Origin: a virus
Taxonomy: Duplodnaviria > Heunggongvirae > Uroviricota > Caudoviricetes
Direction: 5' to 3' (one strand)
DNA length: 30,348 bases
Virus record (IMG/VR): IMGVR_UViG_2568526312_000003
The translations under genes were made by a program, and so were the position numbers. Positions 9,117 to 24,035 of this stretch are shown here, piece after piece (within the stretch, counting starts at the first letter, position 1; each line of letters starts with the position of its first letter). The notes under the pieces were generated by a model. It saw only the letters and a list, made by a program, of their open reading frames with translations. It did no database searches and had not been told where the DNA came from.

Positions 9117-9435
9117 CTGATGTATGTCTCCGTCACCGCCGACAGAAAATGAAAGTAAAGGAAAACAAAAAGCCGCCAGTGTCGCCCACTGACGGCCAAC
9201 GCCGGGAGCCGTGATTATGGCATTCAGGCTCTGCTAAAAATGCCAGATAACATTCCGGCTCCCCCCCCTGATTCAGGTTATAAATGACACAATATCTTGA
9301 CAACACCCATCACTGTCTGTCAGAAAATGTACTGCCAGATATAAGTATCATGTGAAACCCAACTATCCTTCTTAGCCAGTATGAACCGCCCCGGAAATCC
9401 TGGAGACTAAACTCCCTGAGAAAGAGGTAAACAGG

Positions 9436-9762
9436 ATGACTAAAAATACTCGTTTTTCCCCCGAAGTCCGTCAGCGGGCGATTCGTATGGTTCTGGAAAG
9501 TCAGGATGAATATGACTCACAGTGGGCGGCAATTTGTTCCATTGCCCCAAAGATTGGCTGTACGCCGGAGACTCTGCGTGTCTGGGTTCGCCAGCATGAG
9601 CGGGATACCGGGGGCGGTGATGGTGGGCTCACCAGCGCTGAACGTCAGCGTCTGAAAGAGCTGGAACGTGAAAATCGTGAACTGCGCCGCAGTAACGATA
9701 TCCTTCGCCAGGCTTCCGCTTATTTTGCGAAGGCGGAGTTCGACCGCCTCTGGAAAAAATGA
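9436..9762 (+). CDS. IS629 transposase OrfA (HTH)
   Basis: 108 aa [22 protein letters not shown]... matches IS629/IS3-family OrfA as recalled. Confidence 0.9.
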
Positions 9763-10649
9763 TGCCACTGCTGGATAAGCTGCGTGAGCAGTACGGGGTC
9801 GGACCGGTATGCAGCGAACTGCATATTGCCCCGTCAACGTATTACCATTGTCAGCAACAGCGACATCATCCGGATAAACGCAGTGCCCGTGCGCAGCACG
9901 ACGACTGGCTGAAGAGAGAGATACAGCGCGTATACGATGAAAATCATCAGGTGTACGGTGTGCGTAAAGTCTGGCGTCAGTTGTTACGGGAAGGAATCAG
10001 GGTGGCCAGATGTACAGTGGCACGTCTCATGGCGGTTATGGGACTTGCCGGTGTTCTCCGGGGTAAAAAGGTCCGTACGACCATCAGCCGGAAAGCCGTT
10101 GCCGCAGGCGACCGCGTAAACCGTCAGTTCGTGGCAGAACGACCTGACCAGCTGTGGGTGGCTGATTTTACTTACGTCAGCACATGGCAGGGCTTCGTCT
10201 ATGTGGCGTTTATCATTGATGTGTTTGCCGGATACATCGTGGGGTGGCGGGTCTCATCGTCTATGGAAACGACATTCGTGCTGGATGCGCTGGAGCAGGC
10301 GTTGTGGGCCCGTCGTCCGTCTGGCACCATCCATCACAGCGATAAAGGCTCTCAGTATGTGTCACTGGCCTATACGGAGCGACTAAAAGAAGCCGGATTA
10401 CTGGCATCAACAGGGAGTACAGGCGACTCGTATGACAACGCGATGGCTGAGAGCATCAATGGTCTTTACAAAGCGGAGGTAATACACCGTAAGAGCTGGA
10501 AAAACCGTGCAGAAGTGGAACTGGCCACACTAACGTGGGTGGACTGGTATAACAATCGACGATTGCTGGGAAGGCTGGGCCATACTCCTCCGGCAGAAGC
10601 AGAAAAAGCTTATTATGCTTCCATCGGAAACGATGATCTGGCAGCCTGA
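9759..10649 (+). CDS. IS629 transposase OrfB (DDE integrase core)
   Basis: 296 aa with the DDE region (WVADFTYV...HSDKGSQY...[15 protein letters not shown]); frameshift window ggaaaaaatga at 9752-9762. Confidence 0.9.
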
Positions 10650-10730
10650 GTTCACAGATAAAACACTCTCCAGGAAACCCGGGGCGGTTCAGTACTTCTC
10701 CGACGAAAGTCAGTACTGGCTGTTTTTTTA

Positions 10731-12695: not shown

Positions 12696-12894
12696 AAATA
12701 AAGGGATAACGATGATAGTTTGAGAAAAACAGAAATAACACTTTTGTGGCAAAGCATGGTGCCGGGTGCCTCCCGGTGAATTCAGTATCAGCACCTGAAT
12801 CCGCGATTACCCCATATTCCTTCTTGCTGATTGCCCCACCGCACAGGGGGATTCACCATGCAGAAGTGTTTTTAATAAACAGCAAACAAAAAAA

Positions 12895-13660: not shown

Positions 13661-13737
13661 TGGTGCGTTGTACTGGGTTCGAACCAGTGACCGATTGCTT
13701 AGAAGGCAATTGCTCTGTCCGGCTGAGCTAAAAACGC
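13661..13737 (-). tRNA. tRNA-Arg (anticodon UCU)
   Basis: Cloverleaf on minus strand, anticodon loop CTTCTAA, T-arm GGTTCGAAC, 3' CCA encoded. Confidence 0.8.
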
Positions 13738-13750
13738 AGAATACCGATAA

Positions 13751-13829
13751 TGGACCGCCATCGGAGACTCGAACCCCGCGAAACCAGCTTCGAAGGCTGG
13801 CGTTCTATCCCGATGAGCTAATGGCGGTA
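13751..13829 (-). tRNA. tRNA-Arg (anticodon UCG)
   Basis: Anticodon stem CCAGC/GCTGG, loop CTTCGAA, T-arm GGTTCGAGT, CCA end; exact 5' end uncertain by 1-2 nt. Confidence 0.7.
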
Positions 13830-13834
13830 TGTGA

Positions 13835-13910
13835 TGGTGGCCCTTGCTGGATTTGAACCAGCGGCCTGGCGATTATGAGTCGCTCGCTCTCACCACTGAG
13901 CTAAAGGGCC
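13835..13910 (-). tRNA. tRNA with CAU anticodon (Ile2/Met, ileZ-like)
   Basis: GGCCCTTTAGCTCAGTGG...CTCATAA...GGTTCAAATCC...AAGGGCCACCA; 7-bp acceptor stem, anticodon CAT. Confidence 0.8.
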
Positions 13911-16675: not shown

Positions 16676-16831
16676 TTACTCCTCAGGTTCGTAAGCTGTG
16701 AAGACAGCGACCTCCGTCTGGCCGGTTCGGATTCGTACCTCGCAGAGGTCTTTCCTCGTTACCAGTGCCGTCACTATGACGGTTAAACAGATGACGATCA
16801 GGGCGATTAACATCGCCTTTTGCTGCTTCAT
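16676..16831 (-). CDS. hok: Hok/Gef family type I toxin (HokD/RelF-like), with in-frame Mok-like upstream extension to 16888
   Basis: MKQQKAMLIALIVICLTVIVTALVTRKDLCEVRIRTGQTEVAVFTAYEPEE; SD aggaga; 70-aa in-frame extension resembles Mok. Confidence 0.85.
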   Translation of the reverse strand: MKQQKAMLIALIVICLTVIVTALVTRKDLCEVRIRTGQTEVAVFTAYEPEE

Positions 16832-17074
16832 AACCTGCTTCTCCTTGCCTTTCGGCGCGTAAGAGGCTAACCTACGTTTGTGAAGCATAGATTGGGCCTC
16901 AGATTAATGTTAAGCGTCTTGCAGGACGCGTAATGTTAACTGGGGCTTTTCTCTGTCTGCCTTACGGTGGCATGCCCGAGGCAGACAGCCTCAAGCACCC
17001 GCAGCAATTCTACTTAACTCTCGCTTTACAGCAAACCGTTTTGCCCGATATGGGAATTCCCATACGGAATGAAT

Positions 17075-21363: not shown

Positions 21364-21788
21364 TCAATGCACGACAACAGCATTACCAGGCTGACCACCA
21401 CTGTTAGTCAGGGTGCCCCAGGCGATCGCCGCTGCGACAAAATCATCCACATCTTTCACCAGCCGATCCCTCCGTTCGACGATCTCACGGTAATATTCAG
21501 AGCTGTGACTGCGCATACGGGCCACCAGCAGAGGCGGCATTGCCTTTTCGATCGCCGGTAACAGAGCCTGAATTTTTCAACAGCATCAGGGGTGTCTTTA
21601 TCCAGCCAACGGAAAATTTTCTGGGTATTACGAGCCAGGGCTTCCGGATGGCTGTCGTCGTACAGTTCCGGGAACGTCATCCCCAGCTCGAAATAAGTCC
21701 GGGCTATTTCAGCTGCAGGAACTTTCTCACCGTCCGGATAGGCCCAGGCATTGATCGCCATGCGGATGTGCTCATGTTTGATTTTCAT
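21364..21788 (-). pseudogene. YdaT-like (cII-position) protein, frameshifted at a T5/A5 run near 21574-21578
   Basis: ORF 21456..21788 starts MKIKHEHI; after ...AVEKF the plausible continuation (QALLPAIEKAMPPLLVARMRSHSSEYYREIVERRDRLVKDVDDFVAAAIAWG...) is in another frame. Confidence 0.5.
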
Positions 21789-22012
21789 GAATCCCCCTTT
21801 CCTTCGCCCTGAGTGGTATCCTTCTTTTTGTAAAGTTCTGGGTTCAAAGATAATTTCCCCTTGGAGTATGCAGCAGCTTCCGCAGCCCTCCCCTTCGGAA
21901 CTATTTCACCAGGACGCTTACGCCACATGTAAATAGCTTCGCGGGTTATCCCATAAAAATCGGCAACCCTCTGAACAGAACCAAAAAACTGGACAAGTTC
22001 ATCAACTCGCAT
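21785..22012 (-). CDS. cro: Cro-like repressor (YdaS/DicC-type HTH)
   Basis: 75 aa, divergent from the cI-like gene; HTH-like VQRVADFYGITREAIYMWRKR; SD aggagg. Confidence 0.7.
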   Translation of the reverse strand: MRVDELVQFFGSVQRVADFYGITREAIYMWRKRPGEIVPKGRAAEAAAYSKGKLSLNPELYKKKDTTQGEGKGDS

Positions 22013-22090: not shown

Positions 22091-22106
22091 CAATTTGCAG
22101 GAGAAA

Positions 22107-22754
22107 ATGATGGAAAGCCTTGGCTTCAGGCTTAAGAGACTTAGAAAAGATAAGGGGCTGACCCAAGTAGAACTGGGTAAGCTTTCAGGCGTGACTGGGG
22201 TTACTATAGGGTACTGGGAGAAAGATCTAAACGAACCAGGTAGCAAAGCTCTAAGTAAGTTAGCCCAGGCATTAGGAACTACTGAGTCCTATCTCCTATA
22301 TGGAGTATCGTCTCCTGAATTATCTTTTGTACAAAGTACCTCAGGCACCAAGATCCCCTACCTTTCGTGGGGTGAGGCGATTTCTTTCCTAATCTTAAAA
22401 GGAGAGAAAACAATGGGAAATGTCGATAGAATCACCACATTCTTTGATGTCGAGGAAGGTGATTTTGCCGTTTCAATGCCTGATGACACAATGCATAACC
22501 CATCAGGATCACCGAGTATCCCAGTTGGTGCTACTGTGATCCTAAGGCCAGGAGAAAGTTATAAAAATGGCAGCATCGTCGCTGTAATAGTTCCGGATCC
22601 GCTTAAAAATGAACCATCTATGACTATAAAGAAATTAGTTATTGATGGGAAGCTTGTGTATTTAAGCCCTCTCAATCCACGCTATCAGTCATCCTTACTT
22701 ACACCAGAGTGTAAAATTGTTGCCGTAGCAAAAGGTGTACAGTTCAACTTATAA
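22107..22754 (+). CDS. cI: CI-like prophage repressor (HTH plus S24/LexA-like peptidase domain)
   Basis: N-terminal HTH (GLTQVELGKLSGVTGVTIGYWEK); C-terminal S24-like region (SMPDDTMHNP...GSIVAVIV...KKLVIDGKLVYLSPLNP). Confidence 0.8.
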   Translation: MMESLGFRLKRLRKDKGLTQVELGKLSGVTGVTIGYWEKDLNEPGSKALSKLAQALGTTESYLLYGVSSPELSFVQSTSGTKIPYLSWGEAISFLILKGEKTMGNVDRITTFFDVEEGDFAVSMPDDTMHNPSGSPSIPVGATVILRPGESYKNGSIVAVIVPDPLKNEPSMTIKKLVIDGKLVYLSPLNPRYQSSLLTPECKIVAVAKGVQFNL

Positions 22755-22775
22755 CCCGCCACGTCCTTTACTTGA

Positions 22776-22800
22776 GGTCGGCAATGCCGACCTTTTTTTT
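22776..22800 (+). terminator. rho-independent terminator after the repressor gene
   Basis: ggtcggc aat gccgacc hairpin followed by T8. Confidence 0.75.
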
Positions 22801-22805
22801 AAATT

Positions 22806-22850
22806 AATCTAGATTTACCTTGACTGAAAAACTAAATACTTTTAGATTTA
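22806..22850 (+). promoter_or_regulatory. PL promoter with OL operators
   Basis: TTGACT (22820-22825), 17-bp spacer, TAGATT (22843-22848); palindrome AATCTAGATT at 22806-22815 and TTTAGATTTA over the -10. Confidence 0.6.
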
Positions 22851-23028
22851 TTACATACCACCCTACCTCGCCCCACAGAACGTCGGGCAATACCTCGAGT
22901 TACCCGGCAGTGGTCAGGGGTTAAGTAGCCAGCCCGAGGCGTATGAACATGACGGCGGGAACACTTTGTATAACAGCGCAGCAGGTTTTTAGTTCCGCGA
23001 CCCGGCGTTAAGGGTAAATGAGGTCAAC

Positions 23029-23181
23029 ATGGATATGCTCAATCTTGGCAACAATGAATCTCTGGTGTGCGGAGTATTCCCCAACCACGACGGCACGTTT
23101 ACCGCGATGACGTATACCAGAAGTAAAACGTTTAAAACCGAAGCTGGCGCGCATCGCTGGTTAGCAAGAAACGCTAACTGA
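23029..23181 (+). CDS. 50-aa protein, YdfA-like (first gene of the dicB-type operon)
   Basis: SD gagg 6 nt upstream; MDMLNLGNNESLVCGVFPNHDGTFTAMTYTRSKTFKTEAGAHRWLARNAN; not in ORF track (<60 aa); identity from memory. Confidence 0.45.
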   Translation: MDMLNLGNNESLVCGVFPNHDGTFTAMTYTRSKTFKTEAGAHRWLARNAN

Positions 23182-23444
23182 TTAGCGCCAGTAAAAACAG
23201 GTTTCCACAGGTTAATTTACCCTGAAAAGTCAGGGCATAACACGAAAGCGCACGGCGAAGTTAGTCTCTCTGTATAGGTCGTCGTTAAATTTAATTCGAC
23301 CGTGCGCTTCTGGTTGTGGCAATCCGCGAAATGGCGCGGCGGTAAGTATGGCGGGGTTATTCCTTCCCCCGTTGAGGACACCGGGTTGTCAGGTTGACCA
23401 TACGCTTAAGTGACACCCCAGCCACAACAACCTCTGTTATCACT

Positions 23445-23483
23445 TTTCTGGTGATTCGGCGGAAATGGATATCCGCCCTTTTT
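23445..23483 (+). ncRNA. dicF: DicF-like small RNA (variant with shortened or divergent body)
   Basis: tttctggtga...ggcggaaatggatatccgccctttttaaagtgaattttgtgatg resembles the 5' end, terminator and downstream flank of E. coli dicF as recalled; lies just upstream of a dicB homolog. Confidence 0.5.
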
Positions 23484-23661
23484 AAAGTGAATTTTGTGAT
23501 GCGGTGAATGCGGCTATGCGCACGCGGAACAGTTAAAGCAGTAAGGCGGTCTTTTACTGGCGTAACGAGCATCAACTAACCCGACGTTAATTGTTAACTG
23601 GTTAACGTCACCTGGAGGCACCAGGCACTGCATCACAAAATTCATTGTTGAGGACGCGATA

Positions 23662-23850
23662 ATGGAAACGTTATTACCAAACGTTAATACGTCTGAAGGT
23701 TGTTTTGATATTGGTGTTCTGCTCAGTAATAAAGCGTTTACTGAGGATGCCATTAATATGCGGAAATATGAGCCTTATCTGCTCAATGATAATTCCATTC
23801 TTTCCCGAATTGCCCTTATTAAACTTGGTATTTTCGGAGAACGTCAATGA
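23662..23850 (+). CDS. dicB: DicB-like cell division inhibitor
   Basis: METLLPNVNTSEGCFDIGV...FTEDAIN matches the recalled DicB N-terminus; 62 aa. Confidence 0.7.
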   Translation: METLLPNVNTSEGCFDIGVLLSNKAFTEDAINMRKYEPYLLNDNSILSRIALIKLGIFGERQ

Positions 23851-24035
23851 CTTCAGCATTTGCACTGGTGATGACGGTTTTTCTTATAACGGGTGAATCA
23901 CAGAATGTTATTACCGGAATTTATGCCAGTAAAGAATCCTGCCTCCAGGCAAGAGACGAGCAAAAAATTTCTGGTGAATGCCTACCGGTAAAAAAAGTAT
24001 CGCTGTACCTGAATAACGAAACACCGGCTGGATAA
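23847..24035 (+). CDS. YdfD-like small protein (N-terminal hydrophobic segment)
   Basis: 62 aa, ATGA overlap with the dicB-like gene; MTSAFALVMTVFLITG hydrophobic start. Confidence 0.5.
   Translation: MTSAFALVMTVFLITGESQNVITGIYASKESCLQARDEQKISGECLPVKKVSLYLNNETPAG

Follow-up and report, generated by a model that had tools for sequence, protein, structure and literature searches.

We found that the window analyzed here, a 30,348-nucleotide (nt) stretch of DNA recorded in IMG/VR as the Caudoviricetes virus IMGVR_UViG_2568526312_000003, carries a shortened allele of dicF between a ydfA-like gene and dicB. DicF is a textbook prophage small RNA (sRNA) that is credited with the control of cell division and metabolism and with the activation of virulence in enterohemorrhagic E. 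coli (EHEC). Judged by alignment and gene order, the locus is a positional and sequence homologue of dicF, that is, an allele by position and descent. The short allele fails two features that define DicF, namely the covariance model and the anti-ftsZ sequence. We favor, with moderate confidence, the reading that it is a minimal, "terminator-only" allele of dicF with a role mainly in cis, and that its short by-product RNA probably misses the known DicF targets. The evidence consists of the homology of the locus to dicF of E. coli K-12, its anatomy, conservation and distribution, and its loss of complementarity to those targets. The host prophage is lambdoid and belongs to E. coli O157:H7, and the locus lies in its immunity and early-left (dicB) region; a surrounding stretch of 901 bases was 100% identical to the O157:H7 strain PV15-279 and to other O157:H7 chromosomes.

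Homology and anatomy of the short allele

In a pairwise alignment with the K-12 copy (L002), positions 23184-23661 of the window were collinear with the ydfC-dicB intergenic region of the Qin prophage, with a mean column identity of 83%. The flanks were near-identical and included the hairpin CCCTGAAAAGTCAG, both arms of an inverted repeat and a run of 27 identical nt after the terminator. At the dicF position, K-12 reads TTTCTGGTGACGTTTGGCGGTATCAGTTTTACTCCGTGACTGCTCTGCCGCCCTTTTT and the window, as aligned, reads TTTCTGGTGA--TTCGGCGGAAATGGATAT-----------------CCGCCCTTTTT. In particular, the short allele retained the 5' sequence UUUCUGGUGA, the stem base GGCGG/CCGCC, the CUUUUU tail and the spacer, while a 10-nt segment stood in place of the 27-nt inner hairpin and "CG" was missing from the 5' tail. 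The body measured 39 nt to the end of the U-run, compared with 58 nt in K-12, and was thus 19 nt shorter. An earlier note on this DNA had described a resemblance to the dicF 5' end, terminator and dicF-dicB spacer around a shorter and different body, and the alignment bore this out; the similarity did not stop at the terminator, the outcome that the note had named as fatal to its claim, and it took in the 5' end and tail of the allele, its stem base and roughly 430 nt of flanking sequence. The strings that it quoted were all found where it had placed them, including tttctggtga at 23445-23454, ggcggaaatggatatccgcc at 23458-23477, the T-run at 23479-23483 and aaagtgaattttgtgatg at 23484-23501. 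The gene order of repressor, ydfA-like gene, dicF position, dicB, ydfD-like gene and exonuclease gene places the element at the operon position of DicF.

The predicted fold of the short allele comprised a single-stranded 5' tail UUUCUGGUGAUUC, a 6-bp stem GGCGGA/UCCGCC, an 8-nt loop AAUGGAUA, a C and five U. As modeled, the 39-nt element has the shape of an intrinsic terminator, with a G+C-rich stem-loop and a U-run (match 23458-23477, five G-C pairs, tail CTTTTT). This pattern alone is weak, as two terminator-like sites were found in the 1.2 kb scanned and 1.5 were expected by chance; we therefore assigned the terminator on the basis of its homology to K-12. A derivation of the loop by inversion of part of the canonical hairpin was considered and dropped, since the similarity, judged by eye, was too weak. 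The Rfam model of DicF (RF00039) gave no match in 22750-23900 even at E<=10, and none in the whole window at the gathering score (48 bits), whereas the K-12 copy scored 76.7 bits.

Predicted loss of pairing with known DicF targets

Balasubramanian et al. established by compensatory mutation that DicF uses its 3' part to pair with ftsZ and pykA and its 5' part to pair with xylR. Published mutants in the 3' part no longer control ftsZ and pykA, and those in the 5' part no longer control xylR; manX is a further published target. We compared the canonical and short alleles with the K-12 target sequences by a windowed hybridization search corrected for opening energies. Additionally, six alleles were compared by hybrid energies restricted to the validated sites. 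Global RNAduplex on 160-nt target windows was dropped, as it returned long gapped duplexes with huge loops and gave no discrimination from shuffles.

In the corrected search, canonical DicF reached -9.2 kcal/mol on xylR (site +7..+20, via GGUGACGUUUGG), -11.9 on pykA (-19..+1, via ACUCCGUGACUG) and -10.7 on manX (+34..+53, via GUGACUGCUCUGC), while the best values for the short allele were -0.4, +2.3 and +2.8 kcal/mol, respectively. For ftsZ, the canonical allele gave -4.5 kcal/mol at a different site and the short allele +1.1; the known pairing at the ftsZ ribosome-binding site was not among the top three of canonical DicF, and our conclusion on ftsZ is therefore based mainly on the absence of the pairing segment and on the site-restricted energies. 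No favorable pairing was predicted for the short allele on the tested targets, with nothing below -0.4 kcal/mol. At the validated sites, the hybrid energies of canonical DicF were -19.2 (ftsZ), -20.7 (xylR), -22.5 (pykA) and -33.4 (manX), compared with -10.1, -13.9, -12.5 and -9.3 for the short allele. The latter was the weakest of the six alleles at ftsZ, pykA and manX, and at xylR it fell far below the two alleles that keep the seed.

We attribute this loss to the absence of the mapped pairing segments from the alignment. In particular, AGUUUUACUCC, ACUCCGUG and ACUGCUCUGC were gone from the short allele, the first of these being the segment that pairs with ftsZ, and the xylR seed was cut in half, to GGUGA, with GGUGAUUCGG in place of GGUGACGUUU. 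The short allele thus lacks the anti-ftsZ sequence expected of DicF, and it also lacks the expected pairing with xylR, pykA and manX. It had been proposed that an altered body could change the target set; the pairing with known targets is indeed lost by computation, but a gain of new targets was not demonstrated. The same prophage also carries a PerC-family (pch-type) regulator gene (Table 1), and pchA is a reported EHEC-specific DicF target.

A conserved scaffold around the allele

The region 23182-23661 folded at -170.2 kcal/mol and beat 100 of 100 dinucleotide shuffles (z = -4.43). Positions from about 23300 to 23535 and from about 23580 to 23640 were almost invariant across 97 distinct homologous loci. 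When the minimum-free-energy structure of the window was mapped onto the alignment of these loci and the kept pairs were counted for each helix, the inverted repeat, extended to 15 pairs, was paired in 98.7% of cells, with changes on one side only (wobble). The helix GGUUGUGG/CCACAACC was paired in 99.5%, the three hairpins that it encloses in 95-99.7%, and the 21 pairs of the helix that closes the spacer in 98.2%. The hairpin CCCUGAAAAGUCAGGG was less constant (78% of cells paired), and three of its six pairs showed changes on both sides. The earlier note had described a structured, ORF-free leader with a 12-bp long-range inverted repeat and without ydfB or ydfC. The structured character of the region was supported by the predicted fold, and the repeat is present (gaaagcgcacgg at 23244-23255, ccgtgcgcttc at 23300-23310) and extends to about 15 bp. 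The open reading frames (ORFs) that overlap 23182-23661 on either strand are only short (30-79 amino acids, aa), with none of them in RefSeq, and ydfB and ydfC are absent at the locus, but such a gap is not unusual, as K-12 likewise has 567 ORF-free bases between ydfC and dicB. The structured leader is a scaffold common to all dicF loci and is not special to the short allele.

In K-12, RNase III is published to yield a 190-nt DicF species that starts 137 nt upstream of DicF, the 53-nt form needs RNase E, and RNase III also sets the end of an alternative 72-nt form. By arithmetic, position -137 in K-12 lies in the 3' arm of the inverted repeat, between gtcgaccgtgcg and cttcc, and position +72 lies in the 5' arm of the spacer helix, between aagtgaattttgt and gatg. 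The window equivalents of these cuts are at about 23308/23309 (5') and about 23497/23498 (3'). Since each of the published K-12 ends falls in one of the two long helices, these are very probably the RNase III substrates, the inverted repeat upstream, with cleavage predicted in the window prophage, and the spacer helix downstream. The 5' UUUCUGGUGA and the helices around it are conserved, and the published ends fall in them by comparison of the sequences. The loop of the hairpin at 23437-23454 would hold the 5' end of DicF generated by RNase E, as placed by homology to the 53-nt DicF of K-12. The spacer helix ends four bases ahead of the dicB Shine-Dalgarno sequence, and processing there could therefore also affect the translation of dicB.

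The junction domain of about 120 nt that carries the three hairpins was almost invariant in the 97 loci, while the sequence next to it varies, both upstream and in the dicF insert downstream. The domain (23312-23432) had no match in Rfam. It appears, by sequence, to match the 137 additional nt that the published 190-nt precursor has upstream of DicF; that it acts in processing or in readthrough of the terminator is a guess, and a put-like antiterminator RNA is speculation.

Distribution of the short allele

With a 76-nt query spanning the short body, we found the short allele in 442 of 5426 complete E. coli genomes, at 528 places and in up to three copies per genome. The identity was at least 99% in 315 of the 442, which were mostly O157:H7, and 95-99% in the other 127, which included O22:H8, O104:H21 and mouse isolates. 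The canonical 58-mer was present in 3968 of the 5426 genomes; PV15-279 has two canonical copies and one short copy. Pattern scans added 20 IMG/VR contigs and Escherichia albertii NBRC 107761, the only relevant one of 37 stretches matched in GTDB, which were mostly chance matches in unrelated phyla. In deposited phage genomes, there was no short allele above 95% identity, only canonical-type loci and spacer-only matches.

There were three sub-variants, with the variable segment AAATGGATA, AAACGGATA or AAATGAATA, and these differed in the loop only; the 5' tail and the stem were invariant in all 22 short-allele loci. The short allele occurred with at least three upstream contexts, two haplotypes of the upstream flank and, in at least one locus, a different downstream gene, and dicB was intact downstream in 21 of the 22. 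We also observed two clearly different C-terminal types of DicB, one with ..KRKQERELLNKICIVSMLARLRL.. in K-12 and one with ..MRKYEPYLLNDNSILSRIAL.. in the window. The short allele was mostly linked to the latter (19 of 21 loci), and canonical DicF precedes both types. A literature search returned no paper with the short-allele sequence or with natural DicF alleles, although this search was incomplete for key DicF papers and an earlier description is possible.

Other alleles at the dicF position

Scans anchored on the conserved leader CAGGTTGACCATAC and the conserved spacer AAAGTGAATTTTGTG, with the canonical and short spacings excluded, returned more than 150 further loci. Taken together, the anchored loci contained 64 distinct inserts, which fell into at least eight allele classes and were flanked by an invariant leader and an invariant spacer. 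Examples of this slot were IMG/VR loci L184-L334 (e.g., L190, L212, L205, L187, L245 and L306), aligned to window positions 23390-23498. The well-formed alleles shared one plan, consisting of a single-stranded 5' tail, a hairpin on a GGCGG/CCGCC base and a U-run, and they differed in the upper hairpin and often in the tail as well. For example, type B has a compensatory stem base (GGUGG/CCACC), and type D has an unrelated upper stem (GGGUAUC/GAUACCC). Because the alleles share the stem base and U-tail and differ above them, we regard the hairpin as the constant feature.

On the DicF model, type B scored 62 bits, above the gathering score of 48, followed by the L306 type (37.8 bits), type C (28.6 bits) and the L245 type (27.9 bits); type D had no match. 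Types B, D and C were found in 296, 132 and 92 of the 5426 genomes, respectively, and the short allele was the second commonest after the canonical one. In the site-restricted test, type B kept its complementarity to ftsZ, pykA and manX. The 55-nt allele kept the xylR pairing and a reduced manX pairing, and types C and D lost most. All of these alleles, including the 55-nt, L245 and L306 types, have the same conserved leader and spacer on either side as the short allele. In contrast to types B-D, whose tail differs, the short allele of the window keeps the canonical first 10 nt. It is also the shortest and weakest well-formed version, with a hairpin of -10.7 kcal/mol compared with -15 to -21. 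A derivative without the 5' stem arm (L304/L305) is broken, does not fold and is rare, with two loci. In L306 (894-1359), the DicF-like allele and the spacer are followed by isrK and C4 antisense RNA (P1-type immunity RNAs) instead of dicB, which shows the scaffold reused ahead of other modules.

A proposed terminator-only allele acting mainly in cis

Since the scaffold, the stem base and the U-tail are constant across the alleles, we think that the slot has a conserved function in cis, which would be to terminate and process the early-left transcript internally, ahead of dicB. In the mechanism that we propose, transcription would start at a P_L-like promoter under the control of the LexA-type repressor and would run through the ydfA-like gene into the conserved RNA scaffold. 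The scaffold would present, in order, a roughly 20-bp helix at the 5' RNase III cut of K-12, the three-hairpin domain, the RNase E hairpin, the dicF hairpin with its U-tail, and the closed spacer, whose 21-bp helix matches the 3' RNase III cut of K-12 and lies just ahead of the dicB ribosome-binding site. Only the constant parts of DicF, namely its first 10 nt, the terminator stem base and the U-tail, survive in the short allele, where a short loop has taken the place of the variable inner hairpin with the anti-ftsZ, anti-pykA and anti-manX sequences. By terminating and processing the transcript within the operon, the element would limit and shape dicB expression. It would probably release an RNA of 39 nt, or of 53 nt if RNase III sets the 3' end, and this RNA would no longer inhibit cell division or act on other known DicF targets.

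Several points weigh against this reading. The hairpin of the short allele is weak, at -10.7 kcal/mol compared with -15.9 for the canonical hairpin (z = -1.0 versus shuffles), and a C lies between the stem and only five U; from the predicted fold, termination at the short allele may be poor. The conservation of the scaffold is one of sequence, with very little covariation because the 97 loci vary little, and the structure is conserved, as read from the alignment, without proof by compensatory change. The RNAalifold consensus of these loci had a covariation term of only -1.69, and we distrust the A-U/G-U-rich long-range helix that it contained. We infer the transcription, processing and termination of the short allele, as well as its loss of regulation, from sequence comparison. 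In the 5' region of the pch gene of the window prophage, neither allele paired well (canonical -2.1 and short +2.7 kcal/mol; the published pchA interaction was not compared). Finally, the invariant 5' tail could equally reflect selection on a trans-acting seed.

In the main rival reading, which is possible though unlikely in our view, the short allele is a functional trans-acting sRNA with a new target set, in which the 12-13-nt tail UUUCUGGUGAUUC freed by RNase E, possibly together with the loop, pairs with messenger RNAs beyond the K-12 targets. The tail and stem are invariant in 22 of 22 short-allele loci, while the loop and the upstream flank vary, and the allele is the second commonest, in 442 genomes. 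Tails and loops differ among the many alleles of the slot, as seed exchange on a constant scaffold would predict. Additionally, a single-stranded 5' seed, a terminator hairpin and a U-tail form the architecture of Hfq-dependent sRNAs, and canonical DicF is Hfq-dependent. However, the known targets scored near zero or worse for the short allele, and, short of a genome-wide search, no target was found. When the window was scanned for complements of the tail, five matches were obtained, where about one was expected, but one was the locus itself and the others had three mismatches; three of these four lie opposite minus-strand genes, and none was convincing on a transcribed strand. Moreover, the loop is free to vary, and the tail is also needed for the conserved RNase E hairpin, a possible cause of its invariance.

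A related proposal extends this idea to the whole series of alleles. The dicF position would be a modular sRNA cassette, with a fixed processing scaffold and exchangeable seed and hairpin inserts, and the short allele would be expressed as an Hfq-bound RNA of about 39 nt with its own targets. We consider this proposal rather doubtful.

We give still less credit to a third possibility, that the short allele is a decaying dicF remnant without a function of its own, carried along by its conserved flanks. Such decay would fit a shorter element that Rfam does not detect, whose hairpin is weaker than that of any other allele and from which every mapped pairing site is gone, and that lies in a prophage whose copy in PV15-279 has frameshifted portal and terminase genes and a broken integrase. 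In contrast, several separate changes distinguish it from the canonical sequence, yet it has kept a clean hairpin and a U-tail. The truly broken L304/L305 derivative is rare, whereas the short allele has spread over flank haplotypes, downstream genes, serotypes and E. albertii with its stem unchanged. A chance likeness of a short motif beside a generic terminator can be dismissed, since the TTCTGGTGA..CCGCCCTTTTT pattern alone does occur in unrelated genomes (most of the 37 GTDB stretches), but the roughly 430 nt of flanks collinear with K-12, the identical 27-nt run and the ydfA-like and dicB genes on either side refute it.

Comparison with other systems

The closest system to our preferred cis-acting element is DicF of the K-12 Qin prophage (RF00039). 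Both lie in a ydfA...dicF-dicB operon downstream of an immunity repressor and within the same flanking scaffold, and both have the same first 10 nt, stem base GGCGG/CCGCC, CUUUUU tail and downstream spacer. The biogenesis by RNase III, RNase E and termination is presumably the same. In contrast to K-12, the repressor of the window is of the LexA family and is not DicA, and ydfB and ydfC are absent.

The arrangement also resembles that of intra-operonic or 3'-end-derived sRNAs such as SroC, in which an internal Rho-independent terminator is combined with endonuclease cleavage; the SroC type is a short RNA freed from a polycistronic transcript by early termination and RNase E cleavage (PMC9438474). 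Unlike these sRNAs, the RNA of the short dicF allele is a prediction from the sequence.

In the P_L operon of phage lambda, the leader of gene N is processed by RNase III. The lambda N leader likewise has a long early-left helix that ends just before the ribosome-binding site of a small regulatory gene, and by analogy the spacer helix may act on dicB as that helix does on N. The two have no sequence relationship, and the window locus has no nut site or N gene.

The spacer additionally aligned to the whole STnc100 model (RF02076), including the closing stem and the CACCNGGAGGCACCNGGCAC hairpin. The match of 23476-23694 (+ strand) scored 29.5 bits (E = 2.8e-4, local search), and the K-12 dicF-dicB spacer scored 34.4 bits, both below the gathering score of 47. 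The spacer is therefore a related fold and not a member of this family. A full STnc100 copy also lies in the late region of the window, adjoining a SASA-family esterase gene; rather than being a free-standing sRNA, STnc100 may be a structured element that recurs in lambdoid prophages and that RNase III possibly cuts.

Gene context and other prophage features

The features of the locus and of the rest of the prophage are listed in Table 1. The promoter-like site upstream of the ydfA-like gene occupies the position of dicBp (the P_L analogue) and matches the K-12 order dicA-dicBp-ydfA, which suggests that it is an active promoter. K-12 ydfA carries the same annotation as the ydfA-like gene, DUF1391 family protein. 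Downstream of dicB lie the ydfD-like gene and then the exonuclease gene.

Table 1. Positions of the features described in the text (window coordinates).
Feature	Position	Strand	Basis or remark
PerC-family (pch-type) regulator gene	6241-6555	-	same prophage
IS3-family element, 1310 bp	9382-10691		in lysis region
ALIL frameshift pseudoknot	9717-9833		in IS3-family element
STnc100, full copy	12718-12890	-	100.8 bits
Three tRNA genes (Arg, Arg, Ile in RefSeq)	13664-13910	-	just downstream of Q antiterminator gene
hokD/sok type I toxin-antitoxin pair	16676-17000	-	sok 114.9 bits
cro-like gene	21785-22012	-	
LexA-family repressor gene	22095-22754		RefSeq start 22111
Terminator of LexA-family repressor gene	22774-22794		
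Promoter-like site TTGACT-17-TAGATT	22820-22848	+	consensus scan; downstream of repressor gene and its terminator
ydfA-like gene (DUF1391, 50 aa)	23029-23181	+	first operon gene; stop codon abuts leader
Stretch without annotated genes, ydfA-like gene to dicB	23182-23661		no annotation in RefSeq
Hairpin CCCUGAAAAGUCAGGG (string ccctgaaaagtcaggg)	23220-23235	+	minimum-free-energy fold
Long-range helix (inverted repeat)	23242-23311	+	CGAAAGCGCACGGCGA (23242-23257) pairs with UCGACCGUGCGCUUC (23296-23310)
Three-hairpin junction domain	23312-23432	+	fold; closed by GGUUGUGG/CCACAACC
Hairpin UUAUCA-CUUUUC-UGGUGA	23437-23454	+	six consensus pairs invariant in 97 loci
Short dicF allele, 39 nt	23445-23483	+	K-12 alignment, fold, terminator scan
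Structured dicF-dicB spacer	23484-23646	+	encloses hairpins 23583-23609 and 23611-23625
Spacer-closing 21-bp helix	23484-23506 / 23626-23646	+	AAAGUGAAUUUUGUGAUGCGGUG / CACUGCAUCACAAAAUUCAUU
dicB Shine-Dalgarno sequence GAGGA	23650-23654	+	directly 3' of spacer helix
dicB (62 aa, ..MRKYEPYLLNDNSILSRIAL.. type)	23662-23850	+	

In PV15-279, the prophage site adjoins a tRNA-Ser gene, mtfA and yeeJ, and we take the position to be that of Sp14/CP-933U. The copy of the prophage in this strain (L183) has frameshifted portal and large-terminase genes and an interrupted integrase (2670-6375 and 26864-29227), and the element is probably defective there. An IS3-family element identical to that of the window sits in the prophage integrase of PV15-279 instead of the lysis region; because of this difference in site, we conclude that the window came from an O157:H7 strain other than PV15-279. 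We also observed a hokD/sok pair between the replication genes and the Q region. The tRNA genes downstream of Q are of a kind found in many Stx-type lambdoid phages.

Implications

EHEC is reported to carry four dicF copies, and one published survey counted copies at more than 99% identity to K-12, a threshold that would exclude the short allele. Any count that relies on Rfam or on near-identity to K-12 captures just the canonical form, and several common alleles are invisible to Rfam. If the short allele is inactive in trans, arguments about the copy number and dosage of DicF in EHEC would need to be corrected. If it is active in trans, it would be a new regulator, and EHEC would have an extra, functionally distinct DicF-like regulator. 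We judge the allele series of the slot to be more interesting than the short allele itself, as it represents a natural experiment in which a prophage sRNA changes its targets and keeps the signals for its biogenesis.

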